From Promethearchaeia archaeon (GTDB lineage: Archaea > Asgardarchaeota > Lokiarchaeia > Sigyniarchaeales > SOKP01), in the NCBI GenBank assembly GCA_029856145.1, contig JAHQWK010000001.1, positions 288,001 to 352,000 on the forward strand: a stretch of 64,000 nucleotides of DNA. The letters run 5' to 3'. The notes under the pieces were generated by a model that was given only the letters and a program-made list of their open reading frames with translations, was not told the DNA's origin and made no database searches. A program made the position numbers and the translations under genes. Numbering within the stretch: the stretch's first letter is position 1; the number at the start of each line of letters is the position of its first letter. Shown here piece by piece: positions 2,662 through 25,021 of the stretch.

Positions 2662-2943
2662 ATGAAAAAACTTTTATTAATTATTTTAATCGCTTTTATT
2701 ATCGTTTCAATATTTACAATTGTGTTTACCATTCAAAGAAGCAGCACATTCACTAATTTTACTGAGGATAATGGAGATAACGGGGATGATTATTTTAGTT
2801 TTAATAATCTGAATATACTTCAAGATGTAGCTGTTAATAAGATAGAAAATATTTTGCTAACAGATAATAAAAACGTAATTCCTCAAATTTATAACCTCAA
2901 ATTATCCTACGTGTTTTCATTATTTCTAAATGATATAATATAA
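2662..2943 (+). CDS. Small membrane-anchored hypothetical protein, possibly truncated
   Basis: Starts 4 nt after the previous gene; N-terminal TM followed by an acidic linker; 3' end overlaps the convergent gene by 18 nt. Confidence 0.5.
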   Translation: MKKLLLIILIAFIIVSIFTIVFTIQRSSTFTNFTEDNGDNGDDYFSFNNLNILQDVAVNKIENILLTDNKNVIPQIYNLKLSYVFSLFLNDII

Positions 2944-4023: not shown

Positions 4024-4094
4024 TGATTTTAAAAATACGTTATGAAAAAAATGAAAAGAAGAATTTAGAATAAAAAATTAAATAATAAATAAAA

Positions 4095-4382
4095 TTAGAG
4101 CCCTAGAAGTAAAAATTCATCAAGAGCTTTATGAAGTTTCTTTAAATTATCTTCTCCAAGGGCTTTATCTACTTGAATCTTTAAATCAAAAGCGGTACTA
4201 AACGCTTTAAAAAACGTGTTTTGAATGACATCGTTAAACTGAGACTTATCTTTCTTTTGTTCCTTAAATTCATCTACTCGCCTAATCATAGCTTCTTCAT
4301 AAGTTTTGTCAGTAACAGTTCTTAACTCTGCCAGTTTACGGATTTTCATTCCATCCCTATCTTCAACATATTCTTCAGGCAT
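4095..4382 (-). CDS. Hypothetical 95-aa protein abutting tes
   Basis: ATG directly follows the tes stop codon (TAA-ATG); GGAGG upstream. Confidence 0.75.
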   Translation of the reverse strand: MPEEYVEDRDGMKIRKLAELRTVTDKTYEEAMIRRVDEFKEQKKDKSQFNDVIQNTFFKAFSTAFDLKIQVDKALGEDNLKKLHKALDEFLLLGL

Positions 4383-6119
4383 TTATTCCTCCTCCTCCTT
4401 CTTAATCCCACCATTACGGGCGATTTCTTGTTCGATTTCTTCCACAGCTTGACCTGTAGTGGTGTCGAACTCATTTTTAATTTTTGGTGTTATCTGTTTT
4501 GCTATTTGTTTCTCAATAATAGGTCTATGAATTGTGTTCATTGTACAAAAGCTTATTTCCTTTACACTTCCATCTGGCATTGCGACGCCAAAATGTACTA
4601 TACATCTCTTTGTTCTCTCAATGTCCATGTTATAAGCGTCTTGAAAATGCATACTGGAAAGCAACAACGCACCATAACTAAAAGAGCTTACACTCTCCCA
4701 ATCCCCTCGCATTAAAAGTCTTGAAAACATTTCCATGAGTTTTCCTGGTTTTTTCATGTATTGTAACACACCTAAAAGGAATCTTGCTCGGAGTTGGGTT
4801 TTGTCCAGAAAATTCAAACCATTATCTAGAGTTTTACCAAAATCACCTAGTAAATCTTCAAAAATTCTAAGCTGTTTCTTTTCTTTATGTTTAATTTTAG
4901 CCCAAAAACGGTTAGCAAAGTCTATAACTTTTAAAGGGTCGAAATATTCCATTATTGGCATCATTTCGCCCGAATCAGGATCTACTACCATATAACTTGC
5001 AAAACCACAGTCGGGATGACAAGTAAATTCTATTGGTTCAACATCCGCCAAATAGGCTATAACTCTGCCAAATTCCACGATAGTGCTCAAAGGATACCAA
5101 GCATTCTCCATTCCGATCTTCCCACCTGTTTGTTCCTCAATAATTTTAAGTATATCTGCATTGGTTATTCGAAGATCTTGTCGTTCTTCATAAGCAATTC
5201 GGCCACATAGAGAAACCGGCTGAAAAGTTATACCACGAACAACATCCACATTGTCAATAGCATATTGAATGATGTTTCCAACCTCAATATCAGTAACTCC
5301 CTTAGCAATTGTAGCAACCAATACAATGGAATCAAGTCCAGCCTTACGACAATTATCGATAACCCTCTGTTTGTACGCCATGAGATTCTTAATCCCCCTT
5401 GTTTTTTCATATGTGATATCGTTGATGCCATCGAACTGGAAATAGAGTGTATCTAATCCCGCTTCTTTTACCCTTTTGGTCCATTCGAAGCCACCTTTTT
5501 TTCGAGACATCCCATAACCATTCGTAGCTACAATGACTTCCTTAAATCCATTATCTTTTGCCATTTTACAAATTTCAGGAAAATCTTTCCTAACTGTAGG
5601 TTCTCCACCAGTAAACATTATTGCAATTGCTGGAATAGGTTTGCTTCTGAAATGTTTCATAATTCTATCAATTTCTTCCAACGAGGGTTCGACTAAATAA
5701 CCAGATTTTTGTACATTTGCATAACAGAAATTACAATTAAAATTACAACGATTTGTCAAGTCGATTAACGCTAAAGAACAAGTTGATAGGTGCTCTGGAC
5801 ATAAACCACAGTTATAAGGACAACCTCTTGGATCTTCACCAACACAATCAGGAGGATTTGACTCACCATCTTTATCAAATTTCCAAATAACGTTTCCACC
5901 TTTATCTTTTACTGCCCAATGTGTCCATTTATAATATTTAGCAGAGCTACTAATCTTATCTTTGAATTGACCGTGCTCTTCGCAGGTTTTTCTCATCCAG
6001 ATTTCATCATTCTCTTCATAAACTTCGGCACCAATTGGTTCCAAACATTCTGGGCAAACGCTTCCCGTTTTTCGATAATATGGTGTATTTAAATATTCAT
6101 CATCGTCTAAATGATACAT
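4383..6119 (-). CDS. tes: Tetraether lipid synthase Tes / GDGT-MAS (MJ0619-like radical SAM)
   Basis: N-terminal SVCPEC...KTCEEHG; GCPYNCGLCPEH; radical SAM CNFNCNFC; TCHPDCG; HFQDAYNMDIERTKRCIVH; FCTMN. Confidence 0.88.
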   Translation of the reverse strand: MYHLDDDEYLNTPYYRKTGSVCPECLEPIGAEVYEENDEIWMRKTCEEHGQFKDKISSSAKYYKWTHWAVKDKGGNVIWKFDKDGESNPPDCVGEDPRGCPYNCGLCPEHLSTCSLALIDLTNRCNFNCNFCYANVQKSGYLVEPSLEEIDRIMKHFRSKPIPAIAIMFTGGEPTVRKDFPEICKMAKDNGFKEVIVATNGYGMSRKKGGFEWTKRVKEAGLDTLYFQFDGINDITYEKTRGIKNLMAYKQRVIDNCRKAGLDSIVLVATIAKGVTDIEVGNIIQYAIDNVDVVRGITFQPVSLCGRIAYEERQDLRITNADILKIIEEQTGGKIGMENAWYPLSTIVEFGRVIAYLADVEPIEFTCHPDCGFASYMVVDPDSGEMMPIMEYFDPLKVIDFANRFWAKIKHKEKKQLRIFEDLLGDFGKTLDNGLNFLDKTQLRARFLLGVLQYMKKPGKLMEMFSRLLMRGDWESVSSFSYGALLLSSMHFQDAYNMDIERTKRCIVHFGVAMPDGSVKEISFCTMNTIHRPIIEKQIAKQITPKIKNEFDTTTGQAVEEIEQEIARNGGIKKEEEE

Positions 6120-6370
6120 TTTTTGTGTACTCCAAATTTTAATGTTTTAATAAAACATACGTTTATACAAAATTATTTTCCTTTTTTAAAAACATTTTCT
6201 TACGTTTACTACTTTTGATAATATTATTTGTTAATAAACATAAAAACTAATCTTTCTCCCTTCTTACTATTAATTCACGAAGATTTTCAATTTTAGTTAG
6301 ATTAAAAATATAATGTTTATAATTAACAAAATAAAGTAAATACTTAGAGAAAATTTTTGGTGAGACAAAG

Positions 6371-7750
6371 ATGAATGATATGAACTCTGGTTTTGTAAAC
6401 GATTTAAACATGATTTTAGCCACTGATTTTTATCAATTGACAATGGGTGCTGCCTATTATCAATACAATCTCGAGAACAATATTACTGAAGAAAATGATA
6501 TTGCTACATTTGAATTGTTTATTAGAAAATTTCCAGAAAATCGCAATTATTTAATTTTTGCAGGATTAGAACAAGCAATTCAGTATTTACTAAATGCTAG
6601 ATTTACAGAACGAACAATCAAATTTTTAAGAGAGAAGGAAGTTTTCAAAAAAATTGATCCAAGCTTTTTCGATGAGTATTTACCAAATTTTAAATTCAAT
6701 TTGGATGTATGGACAATGAGAGAGGGAAATTTCTTCTTCCCAAATGAACCTATACTGAGAGTACAAGGTCCTATGTTTCATGCGCAAATTGTCGAAACAT
6801 ATCTACTTAATGTAATTAATTTTCAATCTCTAATTGCGTCCAAAGCCTCAAGAATTAAAAATATTGCTCCTAATAAAGTACTTCTTGAATTTGGTACGAG
6901 ACGATCTCATAGTCCTCTTGCGGGAGTCTATGCTGCCAGAGCAAGTTATATTGCGGGATTTAACGGTAGTAGCAATGTGGTTGCGGATCTTGAATTAGGA
7001 ATTAACTCCTCTGGCACTATGGCTCATAGTTTCGTACAGAAATTCGATGATGAGTTAGATAGTTTTGACTTATACTATAAAATCTATGGTAAGAATTCTA
7101 TATTTTTAATAGATACATATGATACTGAAAAAGGAGCTCAGAAATCTTGCAAATATGGGAATACTATATGGGGAGTAAGAATAGATTCTGGCGATCTCAT
7201 TGACCATGCTAAAAAAGTTCGAAAAATTCTTGATGATAATGGCTGTGAAAAAGTATTAATTGTAGCTAGTTCAGATTTGAATGAATATAAAATAAAAGAA
7301 ATTATTGATAAGAATGCTCCCATAGACGTTTTTGGAGTAGGAACTGAATTGGCAACTTCTCGAGATGATCCGACAATTGCGGGAGTATACAAATTAATAG
7401 AATATAATGGAGAGCCAAAAATAAAAATTAGTGAAGAAAAAGTAACTTATCCCGGAATAAAGCAAGTACATCGAATTTACGATAGAAATGGTATGTTTAA
7501 AGAAGATATATTATCACTTGCATATGAACCTGCCCCTTCTAATTCTGAAACACTATTAATTCCAATTATGAAAGATGGTGAATTAATCACGAAATTACCA
7601 AAATTGGATGACATTCAAAAGTTTTATTTAGATAATATTAAGAAATTACCTAAAACCTATAAGAAATTAGAGGAAGTTGATATCTTCGAATTAAAAATTT
7701 CAGAAAAATTAAGGCATCTTACAGATTCTTTAAAACTCAAATATACTTAA
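6371..7750 (+). CDS. pncB: Nicotinate phosphoribosyltransferase
   Basis: TDFYQLTM, EFGTRRSH, GTMAHSFV, LIDTYDT, GVRIDSGDL, FGVGT, VYKL. Confidence 0.95.
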   Translation: MNDMNSGFVNDLNMILATDFYQLTMGAAYYQYNLENNITEENDIATFELFIRKFPENRNYLIFAGLEQAIQYLLNARFTERTIKFLREKEVFKKIDPSFFDEYLPNFKFNLDVWTMREGNFFFPNEPILRVQGPMFHAQIVETYLLNVINFQSLIASKASRIKNIAPNKVLLEFGTRRSHSPLAGVYAARASYIAGFNGSSNVVADLELGINSSGTMAHSFVQKFDDELDSFDLYYKIYGKNSIFLIDTYDTEKGAQKSCKYGNTIWGVRIDSGDLIDHAKKVRKILDDNGCEKVLIVASSDLNEYKIKEIIDKNAPIDVFGVGTELATSRDDPTIAGVYKLIEYNGEPKIKISEEKVTYPGIKQVHRIYDRNGMFKEDILSLAYEPAPSNSETLLIPIMKDGELITKLPKLDDIQKFYLDNIKKLPKTYKKLEEVDIFELKISEKLRHLTDSLKLKYT

Positions 7751-8631
7751 TTTTTAAGATCTACATTTGTTAATTTAACGCTCACATCCCATAGCTGTTT
7801 AGCTACATTTTTATCATATGAGATTTTAACAGATTTCGCTTCTTTTCTCCTTTTAAAGTATTTTCCACTTGTACCATCTACTTCGGGAGAAGAAGCTAGG
7901 TATACTGAAGTTTTTGCCCCTCGCTTCGGTGTTAACATGAATAAGCCAATTAAATGGTAAAAATATTTAACAAATGGGCGAAATTTTCGTATCATATTTG
8001 TTTTTACAAATCCAGGGTGAAGACAATTCACTGAAACTCCTGTTCCCTCTATCTTTCTAGCAAACTCATAAGTAAAGAGTACAACTGCCAATTTTGATTG
8101 TGAGTATGCTTTTAATTGGCGATAATGATTATCTCCGTTTAAGTCATCAAAATCAAAAGATTTTGCTTGAATACTTGATGCTAGGTTTACAATACGCGCT
8201 GGAACGCTATTCTTTAATGTATCTAACAATAAATTACATAACATAAAATGGGCTAAATAGTTTAATGCAAATGTTGTTTCTACGCCATCTTTTGTTAAAG
8301 TCTGTTTGTGTAAATTTACCCCTGCGTTATTTATTAGAACGTGCAAGTTATTATATCTCTTTTTAAATTCTGATACAAGGTTATGAATTCCTTTCTGAGA
8401 AGATAAGTCAGCTAGTATTAAATCAATTGACTCATTTCCTGTTTTTTCTTTTATTTTTTTTATTGCCTTTTCAGCACGAGTTTGATCTCGGCATACCAAT
8501 ACTAATGAAGCCCCTAGTTTTGCTAAACTGATGGCAGTTGCTTTGCCAATACCAGAATTAGCGCCCGTAATCATACAAATTTTTCCATTCAGCATTTTAG
8601 ATTTATTATTCACCATTTTAGCCATTACCAA
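7747..8631 (-). CDS. SDR family oxidoreductase (retinol dehydrogenase/WWOX-like)
   Basis: TGANSGIG, NNAG, YSQSK, HPGFVKT. Confidence 0.93.
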   Translation of the reverse strand: MVMAKMVNNKSKMLNGKICMITGANSGIGKATAISLAKLGASLVLVCRDQTRAEKAIKKIKEKTGNESIDLILADLSSQKGIHNLVSEFKKRYNNLHVLINNAGVNLHKQTLTKDGVETTFALNYLAHFMLCNLLLDTLKNSVPARIVNLASSIQAKSFDFDDLNGDNHYRQLKAYSQSKLAVVLFTYEFARKIEGTGVSVNCLHPGFVKTNMIRKFRPFVKYFYHLIGLFMLTPKRGAKTSVYLASSPEVDGTSGKYFKRRKEAKSVKISYDKNVAKQLWDVSVKLTNVDLKN

Positions 8632-13049: not shown

Positions 13050-14663
13050 TTAAATGATTTTAGTTTTTAAAAACCGTAAATTTGTCTTTTTAACTTTTCG
13101 GTATATTAAAAATATTATAATATATCCCATAGTTGACCAAAGTATCCAAGATAAAGCTTGATAAGCATTTATATTTAAAATATAATTAATAAAATCCTCT
13201 AAAACGTAAAATCCAAAATCATTCAAATCACCTGGGAAATCTACTACTTTGGGATTAAGAACAATAGCAATTACTTGATGAGTATTTTTATTTAATGTTT
13301 CAAAAATATTTGTTATGGTTAAATTTGTTGGATCATCCAGCCTCATTTTAATGAAAGTATTTAAATCTTCATTTGTATGGATATCCGATCCTCCTATACA
13401 TGTTAGATTATTATCAAGACAAAACTGTCGTATTTGTAAATATTTCCCCAAATAACTTCCTCCGTTAACAATCTCAAATCCATCAACACCCCAATCTCTT
13501 AATTGAGTCAATGTATATGGAGCACCAAAACCACTTTTGGGATTAGGTTCATAATTATAATGATTGACCGTAATATATCCTCCATTTGCTTTTACATAGC
13601 TTATTGTATCTGAGGCGTTCAAGGCTATAGGTCCACCTGGAGTGTATGATTGAAGGGGTACAATTTCTTCAGCAAGGCCAAAATAATTCATATGGAGTTT
13701 AGGTTTTATTGCGTTATTAGTCCATTCTTCCGCTATTAGAACCACAAAATCTAAATTATTATCCTCAACATATTTTAGAGCCATTGTAGCACCTCTAATA
13801 TTGTCATGATCAGAAAAAGCAGCACCCGAAATTCCTTGCTTTATATACCAGTCAATTCTTTCTTCAACAGTTAACCAACCATCGCTAAAGGTAGTGTGAA
13901 CGTGGAAATCGAATAAAAACTCGTCATCTTCGAGTGGTATTGCCGGGATTATTTCATGAGTGGGAAAAGGAGTAGATATAAGCACAATATTGGCACTGAG
14001 TAGTATCACACCGATTCCAATATAATACACAGTTTCTCGCTTTATAGCTTGTTTTTTTGACTTTCTTTTTGGTTTTCGGTTTAATAATTTCCTAGATAAG
14101 TTAAGCGACAGTTTTGGATGAAAAAATTTGAGAATAGTGTACCCAATCTTGATGAAAATGAGAATCATACTTAAATGAACCGCTATTTGAACTGGTACCA
14201 TAAAATATCTACTCACAAAAAAATAGCCTTGAGCAATAAATCCAACAAGGATATAAATCCCAACTGTCAAAATAGAAAGACTCAACACTTTAAAAGAAAA
14301 ATAAATGATATCTGCTATTGGGTAAGTAATATATCTATATTTATCTGAACTAAACATCCCCCTTTTCTTTAAATACAAATAGATTCCTCTTAGAATTGGA
14401 TAAAATATTAAGAAAAGAAACATCCATGTGAATTCCATTTCTAAAATGTAAGCAAGTACATAAAAAGGCTCGACAAAATATCTCAGTAACGACAATTTAC
14501 TTGAGTATTCTGATGAAACATCAACTTGTCCAAGAGCATCATAGAATATTACCGTTCTTTGTCCAAAAATAGATAAAATTACAAGGAAAACAAGCCACAT
14601 TAGGAAAGCAATAGAAAGAATCGTGAAAAATTTATTTTTTTTTATTAAAGATTGAATCTTCAT
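13050..14663 (-). CDS. Membrane-bound PHP-domain phosphoesterase
   Basis: About 5 N-terminal TMs and 1 C-terminal TM; DFHVHTTFSDG, SDHD, NH and GGSDIH motifs. Confidence 0.87.
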   Translation of the reverse strand: MKIQSLIKKNKFFTILSIAFLMWLVFLVILSIFGQRTVIFYDALGQVDVSSEYSSKLSLLRYFVEPFYVLAYILEMEFTWMFLFLIFYPILRGIYLYLKKRGMFSSDKYRYITYPIADIIYFSFKVLSLSILTVGIYILVGFIAQGYFFVSRYFMVPVQIAVHLSMILIFIKIGYTILKFFHPKLSLNLSRKLLNRKPKRKSKKQAIKRETVYYIGIGVILLSANIVLISTPFPTHEIIPAIPLEDDEFLFDFHVHTTFSDGWLTVEERIDWYIKQGISGAAFSDHDNIRGATMALKYVEDNNLDFVVLIAEEWTNNAIKPKLHMNYFGLAEEIVPLQSYTPGGPIALNASDTISYVKANGGYITVNHYNYEPNPKSGFGAPYTLTQLRDWGVDGFEIVNGGSYLGKYLQIRQFCLDNNLTCIGGSDIHTNEDLNTFIKMRLDDPTNLTITNIFETLNKNTHQVIAIVLNPKVVDFPGDLNDFGFYVLEDFINYILNINAYQALSWILWSTMGYIIIFLIYRKVKKTNLRFLKTKII

Positions 14664-14732
14664 AATAGGTATTTTAATTGAATTTACTAATAAACTTTTT
14701 AAAAAAAGTAATTATAATCCAATCAAAAATTT

Positions 14733-15923
14733 TTAGGTTAATATATAATTATCTAAAGTTTTAAGTGATTTCACAAATTTTTGATAAATTCTGACATCTA
14801 CAATAGGCAATATTTCACAAATCTTTATTCTTAGGTCTTTTTCGTTAATTCGACATAATTTTGAGGGCTCTATCCCTTTTAAGATCAAGTATAATATTGG
14901 CATTTGAGGAGTAGATGGATGAAAATCATAATTTAGATATCTTACTGAGGATTTTAATTTATCAATTATGAATTTTTCAATTTCATGCTTATTTCTCATT
15001 TCAAAATTGATATAAATTGTTTCCCATAAATATTTTCGGTTTACTAATTGAATTATTTCGACTTTTTTTACAAATCTATCAAACCTTCTTGAAATTTCTA
15101 CTAAAAAAACACCTCGTTTATAGGAATTATCCATTGAACATACAGCTTCTGAAGAACCCGGGTTATAGATCCAATCTTCTAGTATAAATTGTTTATGAAA
15201 ATGACCTAAAGCTAAATAATCTATTCGATGTCGTAGGGGTTGAATATATTCTAATTTAATACCTGGAACATTATCCATCTGACCTTCAATGCCAAAATGC
15301 TGCAAAAGAATGTTAAATAGTTCACTTTTTTTAATTATCGCCTTTCTTATATTTGAAAGAAAAGAAATTGGTTGTTCCCCAAGGTAACGAGTACCATAAA
15401 TCACTATATTTTTGATTTGTATTTTTCCACCTTTATTAATATCAAAATTATAGGGTTCGAAGATTTCTTCTTGGGGTGCTTCTAAATCAGCATCAAGGAG
15501 GATTATCAATCCTAAGCTATTTAAAAGTTTTAACCATGACTGACCTCGTCGTTCGAATCTGATTCCCCTTGAAAATTTTCGGATATCATGATTACCCTCT
15601 ATTGCTATAATTAGAATTGATCCATTTGTAAATTCTTTGAAATCTCTCAATATGTCAACAATTTTAGTTAGATTTCCAGGGAGCATTTCTAGAGAGGTAA
15701 ATACATCACCACCCAGTATAATAAAATTAACATAATGCTTAATTGCTAATTCCAATATTTCTTGAAATGCTCGAATAAAATCATCTGACCGGAATTCATT
15801 TCTATACTGATGACTTCCCAAATGGATATCGCTTGCATGAATGAATCGGGTAACAATTTGAGTATTAGTAGATTTATTATGAAAATTCTCAAATTTAGCT
15901 TTAAATTGATTATTTGAAATCAT
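14733..15923 (-). CDS. Mre11/SbcD-like metallophosphoesterase nuclease
   Basis: SDIHLG, GGDVF, GNHD, LLQH, ALGHFH, YNPGS. Confidence 0.87.
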   Translation of the reverse strand: MISNNQFKAKFENFHNKSTNTQIVTRFIHASDIHLGSHQYRNEFRSDDFIRAFQEILELAIKHYVNFIILGGDVFTSLEMLPGNLTKIVDILRDFKEFTNGSILIIAIEGNHDIRKFSRGIRFERRGQSWLKLLNSLGLIILLDADLEAPQEEIFEPYNFDINKGGKIQIKNIVIYGTRYLGEQPISFLSNIRKAIIKKSELFNILLQHFGIEGQMDNVPGIKLEYIQPLRHRIDYLALGHFHKQFILEDWIYNPGSSEAVCSMDNSYKRGVFLVEISRRFDRFVKKVEIIQLVNRKYLWETIYINFEMRNKHEIEKFIIDKLKSSVRYLNYDFHPSTPQMPILYLILKGIEPSKLCRINEKDLRIKICEILPIVDVRIYQKFVKSLKTLDNYILT

Positions 15924-16075: not shown

Positions 16076-16645
16076 ATGCTAGAGAAAAATGTTAAATATG
16101 AACAAGGGGTAATTCATGGTAGATTCCAAGTATTGCATAATGATCATATCAAATATCTCTTAGCAGGTAAACAATTATGCAGGCATCTCGTAGTAGGTAT
16201 TACTAATCCTGATCCTTCCTTGACAAGAGATTCAGAAGCAAATCCCCATAGAAGCTCTCCAATAGCTAATCCATTAACTTACTACGAACGCTATTTAATG
16301 GTACAAGCAGCACTATTAGAGCAAGGCTTAAAATATTCGGAATTTTCTATTGTTCCTTTCCCTATCAACGTTCCAGAATTACTTAAATATTACATTCCGA
16401 TAGATGCTGTTTTCTTTCTAACAATTTATGATGACTGGGGTAGACAAAAAAAACAATATTTTGAATCTTTAGGATTAAAAATTCATGTCTTATGGGAAGT
16501 AACACTCGAGAATAAAGGACTTAGCTCAAATGATATTCGTGAAGATATGATTAAGGATAAACAATGGGAACAGTATGTACCTATAAGTGTGGCAAAACTC
16601 ATGAAAGATTGGGATATTATTAAGAGAATTAAAAAATTCAGTTGA
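16076..16645 (+). CDS. Nicotinamide/nicotinate-nucleotide adenylyltransferase (NadM-like)
   Basis: HGRFQVLHNDH (HxxH), NPLTYYER, SSNDIR...WEQYVP. Confidence 0.8.
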   Translation: MLEKNVKYEQGVIHGRFQVLHNDHIKYLLAGKQLCRHLVVGITNPDPSLTRDSEANPHRSSPIANPLTYYERYLMVQAALLEQGLKYSEFSIVPFPINVPELLKYYIPIDAVFFLTIYDDWGRQKKQYFESLGLKIHVLWEVTLENKGLSSNDIREDMIKDKQWEQYVPISVAKLMKDWDIIKRIKKFS

Positions 16646-16752
16646 GAAAATTGGAGAAAAAAAAACTATGAACTTTCGGCATATTTTAAGGCCAAATATA
16701 GGTAATAACAAATAATTATTAATATAACTCTGACTATATAACTATTTAATTA

Positions 16753-17520
16753 TTGGTTTTTGGTGGATACATAATCACTTTATTTATAATTAATCTTGAT
16801 AGAATTCTTGTAATTTACTTAACTCAAGGAATATTGGTAATCTTTTTTTCATTGCTAGCGTATCGAATATTAAAAAGAAAAAGACAACGATTAAACCTAA
16901 TTTTCAGTCTATTCTTTATATGTACAATTATCGGCACTATTTTTAATATGATTTATGCTCCTTTAGATCCAATACAACATGAACCAATTATCAAAATTCT
17001 TAATTTTTTCGCTAATTTCTTTGTTTTTTTTGCTCCAATCTTTATGGTCATTGTTAATTTTATTATATTAGAATCAACTCTAATATTCTCGGTAAAAAGG
17101 CAAAACAGGTATATTTTCTTTTATGGATTTTTAATTTTCTCCGGAATGTTAATATTAATCTTAATACCAGATCCACTAAACATTTTAGGAGTTGCAATTA
17201 CAGATGAGGGAAGACCAGAATGGGGTATAGTTTTTTTCATTTACATGGTTTCAATGCTTACGGGTTTTACATTCATCCCTATCTTTCGCACATCTTTAAA
17301 GATATACAATAGTTTAGAAACAAAAGAATTAAAGAAGAAATGGGTATACTATTTTATTGGTACTTTAGGAGTATTTAGTTGGGGTTATTTTATTTTTATA
17401 ACGAATTACTTTGGACATTATTTCGCCATCTTAAGGTCAATTTCATCAATATATGGAATTTCAATTATTATCTGGGTCTGTTTGATGTATTATGGAATTG
17501 GGTTTAAGTTAAAAAATTAA
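16753..17520 (+). CDS. Stand-alone 7TM receptor-like membrane protein (copy 1)
   Basis: Seven hydrophobic segments with basic loops after TM1, TM3 and TM5; paralog of 18963..19724. Confidence 0.8.
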   Translation: MVFGGYIITLFIINLDRILVIYLTQGILVIFFSLLAYRILKRKRQRLNLIFSLFFICTIIGTIFNMIYAPLDPIQHEPIIKILNFFANFFVFFAPIFMVIVNFIILESTLIFSVKRQNRYIFFYGFLIFSGMLILILIPDPLNILGVAITDEGRPEWGIVFFIYMVSMLTGFTFIPIFRTSLKIYNSLETKELKKKWVYYFIGTLGVFSWGYFIFITNYFGHYFAILRSISSIYGISIIIWVCLMYYGIGFKLKN

Positions 17521-17612
17521 TCGGATTCTATACAAGCTTGTCTTTTTGATATCAATAGTTTGCTTTTTAAATTCAGTTATTCTGAATATAAAATTTACTG
17601 ATAAGATTTCTA

Positions 17613-17649
17613 TTTTTTCACGGGACAAATTAGAAAAATATTAAATATG
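17613..17649 (+). promoter_or_regulatory. Conserved operator plus BRE/TATA-like element upstream of GNAT copy 1
   Basis: TTTTTTCACGGGACAAAT-TAGAAAAATATTAAATATG aligns ungapped with 19800..19836. Confidence 0.55.
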
Positions 17650-17695
17650 AAAAGAATTAAACAATAAATGAAAAACTGCTAACAATAGGGAAATT

Positions 17696-18799
17696 ATGCA
17701 AACAACTAGTGAAAATTATTTATTAGACCAAGAAAAACATACTTATTTTCATAGATTTATTGCAAAAAATGGAGAAGAATTTGGATTAAGATTTGGAACT
17801 CCTCGTGATGCAAAAGCTCTTTCTATGATTTTTAAAGAGGTATATGGCTATAAATATGCGTATCCTATCGTTTATGATATAAATCATCTAAAAAGGGAAC
17901 TATCAAACAAAAATAAATTTTGGATTGTAGGTGAATTAACAAATAATCATGAAATTGCTGGTTTTGGATTAATAGAAAAAAAAAGATATATTGCTCATGC
18001 TAGCCAAGCTGTTGCAAAGAAAAAATTTCATGGTTTAGGAATTTTAGCAAAACTTGGTGCGGCCGGTGTGATATATGTTATAAAGATGCCTCAATTCAAA
18101 GATGTGCTAAGACTTGATGGAGAAACTCGAGGATTGAAAATTGGCGCACAAAATCTTATTCGAAATGCAGGGGCGTTTCCTTATGGGTTAATTCCTGCAT
18201 ACATTAATTATGGAGACAAGAGGAAATTTAAAATTGATGAAACGACACCAGTCCCACCACTAAAAGAAGAAGCTGCGTTTCTTTATTCAATTATATTTAA
18301 TAAATTATGGCGTAAAAGAGATAAAAACGTCTATTTATTAAATAATGGGGATTTCATCTTTTTTTATAATTACGTTAAAAAAATGTCTAATAAAATGAAA
18401 AAAGACCGTCTGAATTTAGAAAGGGGTAAGAAAGATAAAGGGTATGAACTTTATGGGTTTTCCAAGGATCTCTATGAAGGGAGAGTGAGTTTGTATGGAT
18501 ATATTAAAGAAAAATCATTGAATAATTTGCTTAAAACTTATCACAATTGGAGAATTTTAGTATGGAGAATCCCTACCACTCAAAATGGGATACATTCAAT
18601 GTCCCTTGCTCTTGAAAAAGGATTTAATATAGTTGGATATGATATAGGTTTTAATAATATAAATTGGACTTTATTTGATTCAGTTATACTCGCATACTAT
18701 CCCAACGGGGGCTCTCACGTTTTAAAAGTAAAATGTATGGATGAGAATAGACCTCTTCTTAATAAGATTAGAGAAATATTTTTTTCTCGTGTCAATTGA
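17696..18799 (+). CDS. GNAT-fold acyltransferase, long form (copy 1)
   Basis: DA...FKEVYGYKYAY, AHASQAVAKKKFHGLG (motif A); paralog of 19885..20982. Confidence 0.78.
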   Translation: MQTTSENYLLDQEKHTYFHRFIAKNGEEFGLRFGTPRDAKALSMIFKEVYGYKYAYPIVYDINHLKRELSNKNKFWIVGELTNNHEIAGFGLIEKKRYIAHASQAVAKKKFHGLGILAKLGAAGVIYVIKMPQFKDVLRLDGETRGLKIGAQNLIRNAGAFPYGLIPAYINYGDKRKFKIDETTPVPPLKEEAAFLYSIIFNKLWRKRDKNVYLLNNGDFIFFYNYVKKMSNKMKKDRLNLERGKKDKGYELYGFSKDLYEGRVSLYGYIKEKSLNNLLKTYHNWRILVWRIPTTQNGIHSMSLALEKGFNIVGYDIGFNNINWTLFDSVILAYYPNGGSHVLKVKCMDENRPLLNKIREIFFSRVN

Positions 18800-18962
18800 T
18801 TACGCCTTTAATTTACTTAATCATTAAAATTTCTGTTATATATAATTATAGCGATTTTTTGAATTAAAATTTGGTTAAATATTTGTTATTAAAGCGATTA
18901 GAATATAGTTATATATTTATGAGCAAATATTATACTACCTATAAAAATTAATAATAATCTTA

Positions 18963-19724
18963 TTGGTGGAAAAAACGTCATATCAAGCTGAAATACCGAG
19001 AATTATAATGGTTTATGTGTTTTTGGGAATTTTAGTACTCTATTTTTCAATAATTACTTATAAAGTTTTAAAGAGAAAAAGGCAACGTTTAAATTTTGTT
19101 ATTAGTGGTTTTTTTGTCAGTATATCCATTGGGTTTATTTTAAATATGGCATATGCAGCCATGACTGATAGAATAACTATTCTAATTCTTAATTTCTTAA
19201 CTAATTACTTCATATTTTTTGGACCAGTCTTTCTACTTATTGTAAATATGATAATATTAGAATCAACTCTTATTTATTCTGTAAAAAGACAAAATAGGTA
19301 TATATTATTTTATGGAATCTTGCTCTTCGCAGGGATGTTAATATTAGTCTTATTAGGAGAAATATTTGATACTCCTAATGTACCATTTTTAGGAGTCCAA
19401 ATAATTAATAACGCACCAAAATGGGGGCCTTTATTTTTTGCCTATGTAGTTTCAATTATGTCTATTTTTACACTTATTCCAATAAATTATACAAATTTTA
19501 AAATCTACTTCCAGTTTGAAACAAAGGCATTGAAAAGAAAGTGGTTTTTCTATTTATTTGGCTTTTTAGGATTAACAGTGATTTTATATTTTAGTATTAT
19601 ATTTAATCTTTTGGATGCTATTATTTATGCTGATGTTAGATTAATAATAACTCTATCAATAAGTAGTGTAATAATCTGGGGTTATATGATGTATTATGGG
19701 ATTGGAATTGAATTAAAGAAGTAA
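18963..19724 (+). CDS. Stand-alone 7TM receptor-like membrane protein (copy 2)
   Basis: Seven TMs; shares LKRKRQRLN, IILESTLIxSVKRQNRYI and MYYGIG with copy 1. Confidence 0.8.
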   Translation: MVEKTSYQAEIPRIIMVYVFLGILVLYFSIITYKVLKRKRQRLNFVISGFFVSISIGFILNMAYAAMTDRITILILNFLTNYFIFFGPVFLLIVNMIILESTLIYSVKRQNRYILFYGILLFAGMLILVLLGEIFDTPNVPFLGVQIINNAPKWGPLFFAYVVSIMSIFTLIPINYTNFKIYFQFETKALKRKWFFYLFGFLGLTVILYFSIIFNLLDAIIYADVRLIITLSISSVIIWGYMMYYGIGIELKK

Positions 19725-19799
19725 TGCCTTAACCTTTTTTCTTGAATTTAATAATTCGCGTTATTTTTCAGAATCTTTATTCTGTAACTTATTTTTAAT

Positions 19800-19836
19800 T
19801 TTTTTCACGTGAAAAAATAGAAAATTTTATATTATG
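19800..19836 (+). promoter_or_regulatory. Perfect 18-bp palindrome plus BRE/TATA-like element upstream of GNAT copy 2
   Basis: TTTTTTCACGTGAAAAAA followed by TAGAAAATTTTATATTATG. Confidence 0.6.
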
Positions 19837-19884
19837 CTCCGAGAAGAATTAATTAACTAGTTAAAAATAGATCGGGATATTAGG

Positions 19885-20982
19885 ATGGCAACCATCATTA
19901 AAAAAGGATTAGATCTTCAAGAAGAGGATGCTTATTTTCAAAAATCTAAATTTAAAAATGGACAGGAATATGGATTAAGGTTTGCTATTCCAAAAGATGC
20001 TACAATTATCTCATCTCTGTTCAAAGAAAGCTATAATTATGAATATCCTTATCCTTATGTTTACGATATCGAACTTTTAAAAAAGGACATTTCAAAACCT
20101 AATAAATTTTGGGTCCTAAGCGATTTATTAGAAAATAAAGTGACTGTTGGCTGTGCCTTAGTCGATAAAGAAAGATACATCGCCCATGCTGGGTGTTTAA
20201 TTGTGAAGAAAGATTTTCGGAGGCAAGGAATTACAAAAAATTTGGCAGCAGCAGGGCTTTTAACAGTTACAAAAATGCCTCAATTTAAAGATGTTTTAAG
20301 ACTTAATGTTGAAGTTCGTGCTCCATTAACTCAAGTTCAAACTTCTGCTCAAAATGCGGGGGCAATACCTTATGGTATAATACCTAGTCACATTAAATTA
20401 ACAGATAACAGATATTTTGATATTAATGATAATAAGCCATGTTCCCCCCAAAATGAAGAATTCAGTACAGTACTTTATTCAATGATTTTTAGAAACCTAT
20501 GGAAGAAAAGAGACAAAAATGTGTTTCTATTAGATAATGAAGATTTAATCTTCTTATATGAATATATTAGAAGTCAAGCTAAAAAAATGAAAGACGATAC
20601 ATTAATCCTTAAAAACAAGAAAAGGAGTAAAGGATATGAACTTTATGGTGTTTCTAAAGATTATTATTTGGCACATGTGAAATTATTTGGCTATATTAAA
20701 GAAAAATCTCTTAATCATTTATTAAATACTTATAGGAATTGGCGAATGATCCTATGGAAAGTTCCGACTACTGAAAATGGAATATCTTCGATGTCTATAG
20801 CCTTAAAAAAAGGATTTAAAGTGGTGGGTTATGATATTGGGTTTAATAACATAAATTGGACCTTATTTGATTCAATTATACTAGCATACTATCCTAATGG
20901 AAATTACGTGTTGTCAGATATAAATTGTTCAGATACAATAAAACCTCTTTTTAACAGGATAAAGAAACAATTTAAGACTTAG
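19885..20982 (+). CDS. GNAT-fold acyltransferase, long form (copy 2)
   Basis: LIVKKDFRRQGIT (motif A); shares KMPQFKDVLRL, KGYELYG and VGYDIGFNNINWTLFDS with copy 1. Confidence 0.82.
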   Translation: MATIIKKGLDLQEEDAYFQKSKFKNGQEYGLRFAIPKDATIISSLFKESYNYEYPYPYVYDIELLKKDISKPNKFWVLSDLLENKVTVGCALVDKERYIAHAGCLIVKKDFRRQGITKNLAAAGLLTVTKMPQFKDVLRLNVEVRAPLTQVQTSAQNAGAIPYGIIPSHIKLTDNRYFDINDNKPCSPQNEEFSTVLYSMIFRNLWKKRDKNVFLLDNEDLIFLYEYIRSQAKKMKDDTLILKNKKRSKGYELYGVSKDYYLAHVKLFGYIKEKSLNHLLNTYRNWRMILWKVPTTENGISSMSIALKKGFKVVGYDIGFNNINWTLFDSIILAYYPNGNYVLSDINCSDTIKPLFNRIKKQFKT

Positions 20983-21087
20983 ATTTAACAATTACCAACT
21001 GTTAATTAAAATTCTCAAATGAACTTATTAAAAAATTATCAAAAAGTACTGAAAAATAGCTGATCTCGTTAAATTTTCATTCTTTAA

Positions 21088-21543
21088 TCATGATAATAGC
21101 GAAATCACTTTTTCTTCAAAAGTTTGAGTACCTGTTCCAAAAATTTTAGTGAGGGATTGTTTAAAAGGTTCAAATTGGCCAACTTTCGTAAGATTAGAGC
21201 CATCAAAATGAGAAATAAATCTTTTTAAAAACTTTTCCAATAAGGGTAAAATTGATTTTTTTAAATACTTCTCAAGTCTATAATCTTTATCCAAAACTAT
21301 GAAAGCAACAATTTCCTGAACATCTCTAAATAAATCTTTTATTGTACCTTTCTTAAAAATTATTGAATATTTATCACTTTCAAAATATTCTACTGGTTCC
21401 ATCAAACATTCGGCAAAACTCAAGAGCCCACTCATTAATCCACTTGAACAAACTAAATTAGTTTGACTTTTACTAGCTCTATGATAGCTGATGAATATAA
21501 TGGGAATTCCATGGAAGATTATACCGGCTTCTCGAATCAACAT
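21088..21543 (-). CDS. Free longin-like domain protein
   Basis: Beta-beta-alpha-beta-beta-beta-alpha pattern: IREAGIIFHGIPII, SGLMSGLLSFAE, YSIIFK, IVAFIVLD, QFEPFKQSLTKIF. Confidence 0.7.
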   Translation of the reverse strand: MLIREAGIIFHGIPIIFISYHRASKSQTNLVCSSGLMSGLLSFAECLMEPVEYFESDKYSIIFKKGTIKDLFRDVQEIVAFIVLDKDYRLEKYLKKSILPLLEKFLKRFISHFDGSNLTKVGQFEPFKQSLTKIFGTGTQTFEEKVISLLS

Positions 21544-21811
21544 AATGAATTCTGAAGTAAATTAAACCAAATCGCTGTTACGGATATTCTTATAAGAATA
21601 CTCCTAATATTCGACAAAATTCTCATATATAAATATAAGTCTTTTCGAACATATTTCGTCGCGATAGTACAATATTAATGCTAAACAGAAAATACGTCGA
21701 ATAAAAAAATTCTCTCAATAAAATATCTCTGAAAAGAATTTTATAGGATTTTAAAAAAAATTTTGTTTCAAATTATACTAAAATAGGGTTTTATTGCAAC
21801 TAATAGCACAT

Positions 21812-22942
21812 TTATGTTGAAAAAATCTCATCAATGATATTTTTAACTGGGTAAAATACAGTTAAATCTCCATTCCAATTAATCAAAATGTTATTATATA
21901 TTTCTTCAACCTTCAGAACTAATCTTTTTAGATTATATGTAAAATATTTCAATTCCTCTTTACTAATTAAAATTCCTGTAATATAATTGGCAGAAAAAAC
22001 ATTTACTATTTTTCTTTTTTTCTTTATAACAGAAATTTCATTAGGTTTGCCATGAATCAATTCATTAAGCATGATATTCATAGAAGCTAAAGCTCCAGAT
22101 ATAAATTGCTTTTCTAAAATTTCAGTATTCTCCATAAAGGAATAATTATATAAACAAATTCCATTTTTATTCAAGATATATATACTTTCAATTTTATCTT
22201 GCCAGTCATATTCAAAGAATGAAGGAATTTTTCTAAAAAAAATGAAGATAAAGCCAATAGCTATTAGTTGGAGGAGGATTCCTATAAATCGAACTAAAAG
22301 GTTTAAATTTTCAAGAAGTAGATCCATCGAAAGAATATATCCCACTAATATAAGTAGGATTGTAAGTGTCATTTTTAGGGCTCCCTTAGGGAGTATATTT
22401 TGTTTTTTCGATTTTTTACCAAAATCTATAACATAAATTATAAAAAACAAAATAAATAAAGGAAAAGACAGAAATGAAAGCACATTAATGATTTCTAAAT
22501 TAATGAAGAATATGACTATAAAAATTAATAATTGAATTAAAAAACAAGTGGTAAAAAAAAATCTTTTGAATAAGAATTTTTTATATTTTTCCATGAATAA
22601 CGTAAAAAATAAGGTACTTAACATTATTGATAGAAATCCAAAATTTAATAAAAGACTTCTAAAACTCCCAATGGTCCATAGAAAAAAAGGAGAAATGATA
22701 AGATCACTAGAGTAGTAGTCACCTAATAAAAAGAAGAACCTCATTAATGAAAATCCGCTAAATAATGCGAAAAATCCTAAATCTTGAGAATTTTTAAGTG
22801 GCTTTGGCTGTTTTTTATATTTGATTAAAAATAGTAGACCTAATTCAAAAGATAAGAATATGAAAATCCAATCCATTACTAAGGATAAAAATCTATGTGG
22901 ACCAATAATAGGAAATTCTGTAAATAAAATATTAATCATCAT
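21812..22942 (-). CDS. 7TM-longin fusion protein
   Basis: Seven TMs, linker PSFFEYDW, then IESIYILNKNGICLY...FISGALASMNIMLNE...WNGDLTVF (Asgard longin-like). Confidence 0.8.
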   Translation of the reverse strand: MMINILFTEFPIIGPHRFLSLVMDWIFIFLSFELGLLFLIKYKKQPKPLKNSQDLGFFALFSGFSLMRFFFLLGDYYSSDLIISPFFLWTIGSFRSLLLNFGFLSIMLSTLFFTLFMEKYKKFLFKRFFFTTCFLIQLLIFIVIFFINLEIINVLSFLSFPLFILFFIIYVIDFGKKSKKQNILPKGALKMTLTILLILVGYILSMDLLLENLNLLVRFIGILLQLIAIGFIFIFFRKIPSFFEYDWQDKIESIYILNKNGICLYNYSFMENTEILEKQFISGALASMNIMLNELIHGKPNEISVIKKKRKIVNVFSANYITGILISKEELKYFTYNLKRLVLKVEEIYNNILINWNGDLTVFYPVKNIIDEIFST

Positions 22943-22945
22943 CCA

Positions 22946-24091
22946 TTATTGTAAAATTCTATTAATAATAACTTCAAAACTCGAAAATAATTTTCCTTGA
23001 TCGCCCTTTAAATCCTCCAAATCTAATAAAATCTCTTTAAAAAAAGACTCAAATTTAATTCTTATAGATTTTAGAAGATGATGAGTACTACTTAAATCCC
23101 TTTTTACAACTAAAATATATGTTATATGAGAAGGATTCAATCCATATTCTAAGAACATATGAAAATCTCCTTTCTTTATTTTATTTATTTTTTCTTTTAT
23201 GGTACCTGTGATAATTGTAATAATACTTTCGATTCCCATTATTCCTTTAGAAAACAGTATCTCATTATTATATAAATGATTTTGACTTATTTTACTATTA
23301 TTTTCAAGTTTTTCAATAAAATTATAACTATAAATGCAACTTTTGTTGTGTTGATTAATTATAAATAATTTTAAGAGGTTGTTTCTCCATTCAAATTCAT
23401 AAAATGGAGGAAAGTCATAAACAGAAAAGAAGATAATAATGAAACCCGTCAATAATTCACCTACTCCTGTGAAATATATTATTTCATTAATAACTGGAGG
23501 TAAAACACCCAAACCAACCAATGAAGCAAAAACTAATGCAAATAAACTTACAATTGCTCCAATGAGAAATAATTTAAACTTTTTCCTGATACTACCTATT
23601 GATTTTTTAATCAAAATTAATTGAAATCTGATTATATATAATCCATTTAAAACAACAAATAAGATGCTTAAAATAAAAATTGGTGAACCTAGGTAAGGTA
23701 CTAATAAAATCATAACAATAGGTATGATATTAAAGATCATCAAGATTTTAGCAATATTTAGATTTATTATAATTGAAAAATCCTTTCTAATTATGAAAAT
23801 GGAGACGCTAAAAGTAGAAAAAAAAGCAAAAAACCAACCCATTCTTGAAAAGAGTTCATATAAAATTCTATCTTCAATGAAATTCCTTGATATTTGTATT
23901 AGTAATGGACCTAAAATTATGAACAAAACAAATGACCCAAATGCTAGTAATACTCTATTTAAGGGAAGAGTTATATCTTGAATTTTGCGATATTGGAAAA
24001 AAAAGTATAAGGCTAATTGAATACCTATAATTACCGGTACCAGATAAGCCAGAAATTGCAGTTCTTTACTAATTTCAATTTGAGAAAGCAT
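22946..24091 (-). CDS. 7TM-longin fusion protein
   Basis: Seven TMs, linker PPFYEFEW, then LLKLFII...LFSKGIMGIESII...ITYILVVK...FESFF. Confidence 0.78.
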   Translation of the reverse strand: MLSQIEISKELQFLAYLVPVIIGIQLALYFFFQYRKIQDITLPLNRVLLAFGSFVLFIILGPLLIQISRNFIEDRILYELFSRMGWFFAFFSTFSVSIFIIRKDFSIIINLNIAKILMIFNIIPIVMILLVPYLGSPIFILSILFVVLNGLYIIRFQLILIKKSIGSIRKKFKLFLIGAIVSLFALVFASLVGLGVLPPVINEIIYFTGVGELLTGFIIIFFSVYDFPPFYEFEWRNNLLKLFIINQHNKSCIYSYNFIEKLENNSKISQNHLYNNEILFSKGIMGIESIITIITGTIKEKINKIKKGDFHMFLEYGLNPSHITYILVVKRDLSSTHHLLKSIRIKFESFFKEILLDLEDLKGDQGKLFSSFEVIINRILQ

Positions 24092-24220
24092 TTTTTATAT
24101 TTACGTAAAAAAATTAAACTGAATTTGAATTTTTTAATATTATTTTCCTGAAAGCACTATAAATATTATTCTCTTTTTCTTAAATTCAATAATTAATATT
24201 TAAACAGAGTATTTAACCAT

Positions 24221-24754
24221 TTATATTAATTGAAAATCTTTTAAAATTCTTTTCAATAAAGATTCGAATATATCTTCCACGTTTTCCCCTGTTTTGGATG
24301 AACATTCTATATAATCAAAGAAATTATATTGATGTCTTATTTTTTCTGCTTCCTTCTTTGAAACTGCTATTTGATCCTTAAGATCTAACTTACCTCCAAC
24401 CAGTATGATTGGAGGATTTTGTTTTCCAGGAGATAAACCCTTTTTAAAAGTATCCAACCATTCTTTAACTCTAATTAATGTTCCATATCTAGTAAGATCA
24501 AACATAAAGATGCCACCAGAAGATCCCCTTGAGTATAATGGTAGTAAAAAATGAAACTCTTTTTCACCACCAAAATCCCACACTTGCAATACTATTCTTT
24601 TATCTTCAATTTTTAGAAATTTTATAAAAATTTCTGCTCCCATTGTAAGCTTAATGTCTTCATCAAAATACCCTTTAAGAAATCGCTGAGCTAATGTAGT
24701 TTTTCCTACACCACTTTCTCCAAAAATGCAAATTTTGTAAGCTAATTCTCCAAT
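24221..24754 (-). CDS. Rab-like small GTPase (Ras superfamily), about 177 aa, probable ATT start
   Basis: The frame extends upstream of the called ATG (24643) through YKICIFGESGVGKTT (G1) and LTMG (G2); also WDFGGE (G3), GGKLD (G4) and CSSKTG (G5). Confidence 0.92.
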   Translation of the reverse strand: MGELAYKICIFGESGVGKTTLAQRFLKGYFDEDIKLTMGAEIFIKFLKIEDKRIVLQVWDFGGEKEFHFLLPLYSRGSSGGIFMFDLTRYGTLIRVKEWLDTFKKGLSPGKQNPPIILVGGKLDLKDQIAVSKKEAEKIRHQYNFFDYIECSSKTGENVEDIFESLLKRILKDFQLI

Positions 24755-25021
24755 AATAGGCTCCCTCTTTTCTACATTTTATGATTAATAACTATCTGAA
24801 TTCGATTCTTTTAGAAATCGAAAACCTCAACCGAATTTATATTATTAAAGAGAAAAATGCTTGTTCTATTTGAAAACTCGAAAATAAAGCTAAGGCGAAT
24901 TTTCTTTTCTCTATTGTATTAAATAAAATCTTAAATATTTAAATCTATTTTAAAACCTTCTGATAAATCGAGAATTAGTTTTCCAAAATTGTTAAAATTA
25001 AAAAAAATTTTAAAAAAAAAT

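Follow-up and report, generated by a model that had tools for sequence, protein, structure and literature searches.

Introduction

The polymorphic pheromone cassettes of Firmicutes, among them comQXP of Bacillus and agrBDCA of Staphylococcus, occupy a fixed locus and comprise old, discrete specificity classes that are exchanged between strains and species. In these systems a modifying enzyme and the membrane-sensing part of a receptor vary together, and the signalling part and the flanks stay constant. Here we describe a locus of comparable behaviour in an Asgard archaeon of the Lokiarchaeia. Within a 64,000-nucleotide stretch of its genome (hereafter the window), positions 16753-20982 carry, twice in series, a cassette composed of a gene for a stand-alone seven-helix membrane protein (7TM) and a gene for a cytoplasmic GNAT acetyltransferase. 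We find that this cassette exists as discrete allele classes exchanged between species at a fixed site, and that the 7TM varies on its outer face and is constant on its inner one.

In behaviour, the nearest analogues of the cassette, judged by likeness, are the polymorphic pheromone loci of Firmicutes: the features in common are discrete old allele classes, conserved flanks, exchange across species, and a variable sensing part set beside a constant signalling part. The components differ, however, with an isoprenyl transferase or peptidase and a histidine kinase there, and a GNAT and a protein predicted to have the fold seen in G-protein-coupled receptors (GPCRs) here. In parts, by the same kind of comparison, the nearest analogues are GPCR folds and bacterial GNATs that are fused to sensor domains.

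Eukaryotic GPCRs of adhesion class B2, class C and class A resemble the predicted 7TM at the level of fold, in having seven helices packed in the same way, an outward N-terminus and an inward C-terminus, a variable outside, a conserved cytoplasmic face and, at the inside end of helix 3, an acidic/polar motif that is likewise conserved. The 7TM is nevertheless only ~250 residues long and has no sequence similarity to GPCR Pfam families, and its partner is a GNAT, the heterotrimeric G protein being absent here. HisKA_7TM (PF16927) and 7TMR-DISM proteins likewise have a seven-helix sensor module, but the 7TM carries neither a fused kinase nor any other output.

On the enzyme side, uncharacterised bacterial clusters in the ESM Atlas combine a two-domain GNAT architecture with a cNMP-binding or HATPase_c_2 module; the sensor is fused and soluble in those proteins, whereas here a separate membrane protein would be the sensor. 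Related to them in idea are the cAMP-regulated protein acetyltransferases, such as mycobacterial PatA. LuxI-type acyl-homoserine lactone synthases and N-acyl amino acid synthases are comparable in having a GNAT-related fold and, as a concept, in pairing the gene for a signal synthase with that for its receptor, but they lack the second domain of the cassette GNAT. GPCR-like 7TM clusters of Asgard archaea have already been catalogued in a structural preprint (10.64898/2026.10.28.762692). Our searches of the literature on Asgard 7TM proteins, GPCRs, quorum sensing and GNATs returned only catalogue-level mentions of such clusters, and found no description of the 7TM-GNAT pairing or of its allelic behaviour.

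Results

Two intact 7TM-GNAT cassettes in series

The window lies on contig 9 of a 3.55-Mb genome that is 97% complete, in AT-rich surroundings (~28% GC around 16753-20982). Four plus-strand open reading frames without internal stops fill the region: 7TM-A (16753..17520; 255 aa, TTG start), GNAT-A (17696..18799; 367 aa), 7TM-B (18963..19724; 253 aa, with a possible ATG start at 19008 that is used in one public record) and GNAT-B (19885..20982; 365 aa). This confirms the order 7TM-GNAT-7TM-GNAT and the integrity of all four genes, as set out in an earlier reading of the letters alone (the original prediction). The details quoted there are present as well. LKRKRQRLN occurs in both 7TMs, as do the inner motifs ILESTLI[FY]SVKRQNRY and ETK[EA]LK[KR]KW; the outer loops differ and carry indels (APLDPIQHEP versus AAMTDRIT); and the two GNATs have a long C-terminal block in common, VGYDIGFNNINWTLFDS. 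Overall, the A and B copies are 50% identical in the 7TM and 55% identical in the GNAT, and the repeat at the DNA level is limited to conserved blocks (73-78% identity, with a period of ~2190 nt). A 3.5-kb contig from a public sequencing run contains the nucleotidyltransferase gene that precedes the cassettes, a 7TM gene, a GNAT gene identical to GNAT-A and another plus-strand gene. In single-cassette genomes the position after the GNAT is taken by a minus-strand gene. Since the public contig has a plus-strand gene after GNAT-A, the tandem is unlikely to be an assembly artefact.

The two families are linked across genomes

The original prediction had treated the two proteins as working pairs, and their distribution bears out the linkage. 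Across 400 genomes of the phylum scanned for both families, the GNAT was found in 67, all of one order, including 62 of the 134 genomes in the family to which the window belongs; the 7TM was found in 144, including 126 of those 134, at 2-6 copies each. Homologues are labelled Promethearchaeota or Lokiarchaeia in public sources. Within the genus, all 39 of the retrievable GNATs have a co-directional 7TM 60-250 bp upstream, in a constant gene order: hydrolase, 152-aa gene, PHP, metallophosphoesterase, nucleotidyltransferase, the 7TM and GNAT, and a convergent 151-aa gene. Of 16 loci in other genera, 6 have the 7TM adjacent (three of them convergent) and 8 have it within 3 kb. Other GNATs of these genera stand alone or in GNAT-GNAT tandems, next to genes for methionyl-tRNA synthetase (MetRS), a vWA-RING protein, an M20 peptidase or a Sir2 protein. 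The 7TM-GNAT link is thus real, but not obligatory.

One could suppose that a housekeeping GNAT simply lies beside an unrelated membrane protein, the two being kept together by inherited gene order. The adjacency data do come mostly from one genus with conserved gene order, as this idea expects. However, the adjacency recurs in other genera and in different orientations, and the pair is swapped as a unit where its flanks are not (see below). Furthermore, because there are only 2-6 copies of the 7TM per ~4-Mb genome, proximity within 3 kb would arise by chance in less than ~1% of cases, so that the proximity seen is far beyond chance. We therefore consider mere neighbourhood extremely unlikely.

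Several loci elsewhere show other arrangements of the same families. In another genus, locus L014 of genome G273 (3399-8176) holds a second 7TM-GNAT-7TM-GNAT tandem, the copies of which are 66-67% identical and close in the tree, with a third 7TM encoded on the opposite strand; four further loci have two GNATs in tandem, at 48-69% identity. GNATs without a 7TM in three genera (L013, L021 and L025) have MetRS and a vWA plus RING/PHD-finger (Ssl1-like) protein upstream, and at L021 and L025 an M20 peptidase gene lies convergent downstream. At L012 of genome G155 (2841-7136) a Sir2-family gene is divergent to a tandem of two GNAT paralogues that are 69% identical, each followed by a small paralogous gene of 107-115 aa without a Pfam match. 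The window genome itself encodes an orphan 7TM paralogue on contig 19 (L006, 1042-2226, minus strand), 40% identical to 7TM-A and followed by a 115-aa helix-hairpin-helix protein (HHH_5, E 1.8e-14). A 7TM plus a small 115-aa gene recurs in the other genus represented by G155 (L012, 1550-2827), with an N-terminus that is similar by eye; 7TM plus helix-hairpin-helix may be a third kind of pair between a 7TM and a soluble partner.

Discrete allele classes are exchanged at one site

The cassette comprises discrete allele classes that are exchanged at a fixed locus, and the window genome holds two of them. In the GNAT tree, copy B groups with genomes G181, G219, G186 and G221 (87% identity to G181), and copy A with G182 and G225 (77%). 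The 7TM tree gives the same partners, at 92% to G181 for copy B and 67-69% for copy A. All well-supported clades of the two trees coincide, which supports the linkage of the two families. Forcing A and B to be sisters is rejected by the approximately unbiased (AU) test (difference in log-likelihood 290, p-AU 3e-42), for which the grouping was chosen after inspection of the tree. The claim that both genes had been duplicated together as a local event therefore does not survive: each cassette is closer to single-copy relatives from other species than it is to its own neighbour, and an in-place duplication of the 7TM-GNAT pair is rejected by the GNAT tree, the 7TM tree and the AU test alike.

The other GNAT-bearing genomes of the genus have one intact cassette each, and the window genome has its two in series. 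In a tree of five concatenated flanking proteins the window genome groups with G219, G201 and G209. For this reason copy B looks like the resident class, and copy A looks like an addition from a lineage of the G182/G225 type, as far as the trees can tell.

The clearest case of exchange comes from genomes G185 and G224, whose flanking proteins are 97-99% identical and whose 7TM and GNAT are both only 56% identical. At the DNA level, identity between them is 95-99% on both sides, 50-70% across GNAT and 7TM, and 85-95% over the longin-like gene, the convergent 151-aa neighbour. Similarly, between G178 and G195 three flanking proteins are 87-95% identical, the two nearest the cassette 79-84%, and the cassette 55-57%. 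Conversely, copy B of the window genome and the cassette of G181, at 92% and 87% identity, are closer to each other than are their flanks (69-84%). Genome G199 carries a deep-branching class, inverted at the same site, that is 31-35% identical to the cassette found in G188, its relative by the flanks. Because the flanks are near-identical where the pair diverges, we conclude that the cassette consists of old discrete classes swapped between species by recombination. Moreover, three GNAT-less genomes of the genus keep the flanks and have other genes between the nucleotidyltransferase gene and cdhC, so the site is an exchange hotspot in which the conserved flanking genes serve as recombination arms.

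The inverted-cassette class of G199 (locus L106, 3843-7224) groups with cassettes of two other genera (G273 and G164), and G198 carries the same deep class. The upstream anchor of the site is the nucleotidyltransferase gene (NMN adenylyltransferase-like; 16076..16645, plus strand), and the interval from there to cdhC (16646-25021) is an island whose content varies within the genus: genomes may have in it the cassette with one or two longin-like genes, a leucine-rich repeat protein, a ferredoxin-type gene, or unrelated genes without a cassette. In the window genome, two 7TM-longin fusions are present there as well, along with a Ras/Rab-like GTPase. The G185/G224 comparison (L108 of G185, 13600-15200, against L109 of G224) shows, beside the cassette, a second stretch without homology (35-43% identity), which replaces the region of an Mre11-like metallophosphoesterase gene in one of the two genomes, otherwise 97-99% identical.

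A variable outer face and constant inner face

Sequence entropy of the 7TM, computed over 40 cassettes of the genus, is 2.1-2.7 bits in the three outer loops and 0.5-0.75 bits in the three inner loops; the means are 1.68 bits for the outer half and 0.97 bits for the inner half (Mann-Whitney p 2e-10). The outer loops form discrete types with their own insertions and indels, conserved inside clades and different between them. This outer-variable, inner-constant pattern is, at the level of the alignments, the pattern of a receptor. Twelve close within-class pairs gave ratios of non-synonymous to synonymous substitution (dN/dS) of 0.26 for the outer half and 0.13 for the inner half of the 7TM, 0.16 for the N-terminal domain of the GNAT and 0.14 for its C-terminal domain. 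With all values at 0.13-0.26, every part of the cassette is functional, and within a class the outer face is under constraint, not racing. The cassette is thus conserved and functional.

These data bear on the idea of a conflict or resistance island, in which the membrane protein would be an exposed target or the passage for a toxin, the GNAT would detoxify by acetylation, and the classes would reflect an arms race with viruses or competitors. Hypervariable cassettes that have sharp boundaries and are exchanged laterally are a typical feature of defence and immunity loci, the content of the nucleotidyltransferase-cdhC interval differs between genomes, and the fold neighbours of the GNAT include BAR/PAT, ArsN, tabtoxin resistance protein, MccE and BlmB. 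On the other hand, the purifying selection on the outer face within classes does not fit continuing change, PADLOC and PHROGs returned no useful match, neither an integrase nor a tRNA was found at the exchange site, and the GPCR-type fold is not a known transporter fold. We regard a resistance island as quite improbable.

The enzyme varies with the receptor. Between A and B, identity is 38% in the outer and 62% in the inner part of the 7TM, 49% in the catalytic domain of the GNAT and 67% in its second domain. Defining class-determining sites as positions conserved within seven classes with at least 4 different residues between classes, we found 10 such sites in the GNAT, of which 9 fall in the catalytic domain. 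Two of the sites adjoin an invariant proline in the alpha1-alpha2 loop, and another three belong to the beta2-beta3 region. This concentration in the catalytic domain is suggestive, the count of aligned sites being small. If the catalytic domain tracks receptor class, the simplest reason would be that both proteins handle the same class-specific compound.

The main competing account would have the 7TM sense an outside cue and switch the GNAT, which would then acetylate a conserved cytoplasmic protein. Class selection would in that case act on the outer face of the receptor only, through ligands or attaching viruses, and the GNAT would have diverged by linkage. This account gains from the bacterial structural relatives of the GNAT that are fused to cNMP-binding or HATPase_c_2 sensors, as expected of a regulated output module, and from 7TM paralogues that pair with other soluble proteins (longin-like in 9 genomes, and the helix-hairpin-helix protein). 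The Sir2 deacetylase gene beside the GNAT pair in G155 is also in keeping with it, as is the DNA identity between G185 and G224, which is lowest over the 7TM. However, the longin-like gene, which is as close to the GNAT as the 7TM is, stays at 78-96% identity where the GNAT falls to 56-72%. In addition, the class-defining sites concentrate in the catalytic domain, though within-class constraint is equal in both GNAT domains. We therefore hold a receptor with an output enzyme to be possible but rather unlikely.

The general inner-loop pattern is also kept in orphan 7TM paralogues (a basic first loop ending in RLN, LK[KR]KW and MY.G.G), with different details. Judging from these motifs, the inner face probably has a binding partner that serves the entire 7TM family.

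Predicted fold of the 7TM

An AlphaFold2 model of the 7TM, built on an alignment of 43 relatives (pLDDT 88), consists of seven helices with a short beta-hairpin in the second outer loop and has no soluble domain, in line with the claim that the protein lacks an output domain. The Lys/Arg-rich loops put the N-terminus outside and the C-terminus inside, and the positive-inside rule holds in both 7TMs. Foldseek gave weak GPCR matches (best E 7.8e-4, TM-score 0.57), and in an exhaustive alignment against 48,161 solved chains the top 50 were all GPCRs, at Z 17.9-15.0 over 215-244 residues. The best match is CD97 (Z 17.9, root-mean-square deviation (rmsd) 3.5 over 228 residues), with ADGRL3 at Z 17.7, and the scores exceed the range that the alignment tool quotes for generic helical bundles. 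The model thus firmly supports a GPCR-type predicted fold. We note that a designed soluble GPCR-like fold scores almost equally (Z 16.9); the match is therefore one of fold and topology, not of ancestry.

At the sequence level, the 43 7TM family members did not match the GPCR profiles 7tm_1, 7tm_2, 7tm_3, Frizzled and Dicty_CAR of Pfam at E up to 1, and Pfam and NCBIfam yielded no significant match for the 7TM. HisKA_7TM (PF16927) matched none of the 43 and 7TMR-DISM (PF07695) matched one, at E 0.002. Two family members in UniRef are named after HisKA_7TM, and PF16927 occurs in 10% of the members of the nearest Atlas cluster with a family assignment. Longer versions of the 7TM, fused to other domains, were looked for and not found, which is weak evidence, and a profile comparison showed no relationship between the family and the two neighbouring 7TM-longin fusions.

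Predicted architecture of the GNAT

The GNAT-A model (pLDDT 88) has three parts, namely an N-terminal catalytic GNAT domain (residues ~19-200), a second GNAT-like domain (~211-334) and a C-terminal helix. It shows the GNAT fold, a mixed beta-sheet with a beta4/beta5 splay, and matched many GNATs in Foldseek at E 2.6e-9 and below. The acetyl-CoA-binding motif A has the family consensus KKKFQGxG with an invariant G115. Pfam Acetyltransf_1 matches GNAT-B at 22.4 bits against a cut-off of 20.7, and 19 of the 44 GNAT family members; across these 44, the only Pfam matches were to Acetyltransf_1, _7, _10 and _4. The assignment to the GNATs is therefore valid, by the above-cut-off profile match for copy B and by the modelled fold for copy A. 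The second domain has a GNAT-like order of strands and helices without the CoA motif, and on its own found no sequence relatives in the PDB. On the model, the GNAT is firmly a two-domain protein.

Against the ESM Atlas, the whole model matched bacterial two-domain GNAT clusters (TM-score 0.74-0.79, rmsd 2.2-3.2, 309-326 residues), several of which also carry a fused cNMP-binding or HATPase_c_2 domain. When 1.8 billion representatives were searched by profile, the family proper proved to be small, with 34 proteins at E below 1e-30 and no form long enough to include a 7TM part; the next tier comprises GNATs of ~400 aa that align to the N-terminal domain only, at E ~1e-9 or weaker.

The GNATs had been likened to LuxI and N-acyl amino acid synthases. 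This identity found no support, as the 44 members carry no signature of these families and the nearest folds in the model-based search are short-chain acetyltransferases. Pfam Autoind_synth (LuxI) did not match any member at E up to 0.1, and structures of LuxI, EsaI or TofI type were not among the top 50 matches of either GNAT fold search.

The fold search has a bearing on yet another possibility, that the GNAT acetylates its own receptor, either at lysines of the K/R-rich inner loops or at the N-terminus, in a desensitising or maturation step. The inner loops are indeed lysine-rich and invariant, and the best-scoring folds for the catalytic domain include the N-terminal acetyltransferases RimJ, RimI, Naa60 and Ard1 (Z 13.2 to 11.9), RimJ being the best (Z 13.2, rmsd 2.7 over 167 residues). 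A profile-to-PDB search also matched the GNAT to archaeal Ard1, at E 0.004, about as weakly as to SpeG and AAC enzymes. However, many acetyltransferases lie within 2 Z units of the RimJ match; because all the fold matches fall within ~2 Z units, the likeness to N-terminal acetyltransferases is not specific. The supposed target loops are, moreover, constant while the catalytic domain varies by class, and the N-terminus of the 7TM is predicted to be outward and is variable. Self-modification of this kind appears very unlikely.

Neighbouring genes and the upstream element

The constant convergent neighbour of the cassette is the longin-like gene (21088..21543, minus strand, 151 aa), a candidate for the shared partner. 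It gave an Atlas feature match score of 0.90 to a cluster in which 34% of members carry Fuz_longin_1. Within the genus, the GNAT-bearing genomes have its ortholog (best E 1e-62 to 1e-88) and none of the 12 GNAT-less ones does; of these, eleven have only a paralogue of ~40% identity and one has no match. As a matter of context, the longin-like gene and, in the window genome, a block of Rab-like GTPase adjoin the cassette. In nine genomes of the genus a second 7TM paralogue is convergent to the cassette and lies directly upstream of the longin-like gene, so that a 7TM and GNAT face a longin and 7TM; in the window this slot is occupied by a 7TM-longin fusion.

Each GNAT is preceded by a copy of a repeat element (family D6) that reads TTTTTTCACG[GT]G, followed by an A/T-rich, TATA-like stretch. 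The first copy (17613..17649, plus strand) lies upstream of GNAT-A and the second (19800..19836, plus strand) upstream of GNAT-B, both ~45-85 nt from the start codons. The T-run and CACG[ACGT]G core of the element recur in 21 of the 42 7TM-GNAT spacers of the genus, across different classes. Inverted repeats stand just upstream of the elements (ATTCAG..CTGAAT at ~17572-17588 and CAGAAT..ATTCTG at ~19770-19785).

Discussion

The explanation that we tentatively favour, and hold to be somewhat short of probable, is that in every cassette receptor and enzyme form a matched pair, with a single class-specific compound to which both are tuned. The receptor would bind the compound by its variable outward half and pass the signal, by way of its constant cytoplasmic loops, to a partner that all classes share, for which the longin-like neighbour is a candidate. 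The GNAT would use acetyl-CoA or a short acyl-CoA on the class compound or its precursor, and would thereby either make the ligand, as in a self-signal, or acetylate the ligand once it has been received. With two cassettes, the cell would have two channels that operate independently. Of the original prediction, the part that proposed specificity variants with a shared downstream partner fits the variable outer and constant inner face of the 7TM, whereas the likening of the GNAT to LuxI-type or N-acyl amino acid synthases is without support; a GNAT that makes the ligand is one option within the matched-pair reading.

A number of observations weigh against matched pairs. A precursor peptide gene, by which the cassette again differs from comQXP and agrBDCA, was not found in the spacers, where there is no plausible candidate, only open reading frames of 4-6 codons; nor was a ligand, signal or exporter gene found. 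No N-acyl amino acid synthase profile matched any of the 44 GNAT family members. The stronger divergence seen in the catalytic domain depends on 10 sites and might come from relaxed constraint, and the GNAT could have diverged solely through linkage to a receptor under diversifying selection. Since orphan 7TM paralogues share the inner-loop pattern, the constant inner loops need not bind the GNAT. In addition, GNAT paralogues without a nearby 7TM exist in other genera, and 7TM paralogues without a GNAT exist even in GNAT-less genomes. Finally, all structures of the cassette proteins are predicted models.

Asgard archaea have been searched for forerunners of eukaryotic signalling, and the GPCR-like 7TMs catalogued in them came without partners or function. 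One Asgard 7TM family now has a dedicated enzyme partner and a fixed genomic address. Its exchanged, discrete classes, variable outside and constant inside, carry the population signature that normally marks specificity-determining recognition systems. The locus also provides 'specificity swap' pairs that occur naturally, two within a single genome, and these are open to direct expression tests for the ligand, the acetylation product and the cytoplasmic partner. A bolder form of the matched-pair reading, which we think distinctly unlikely, is an archaeal self-signalling or kin-recognition system built on a receptor of GPCR fold, in which the product of each GNAT class would be a distinct acetylated amine or peptide, and the cognate 7TM would sense it outside and relay it via the constant inner loops to longin-type regulators and a small GTPase. 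If true, the system would be a prokaryotic equivalent of receptor-to-GTPase signalling that shows polymorphism of the pheromone type and belongs to the archaea most closely related to eukaryotes.

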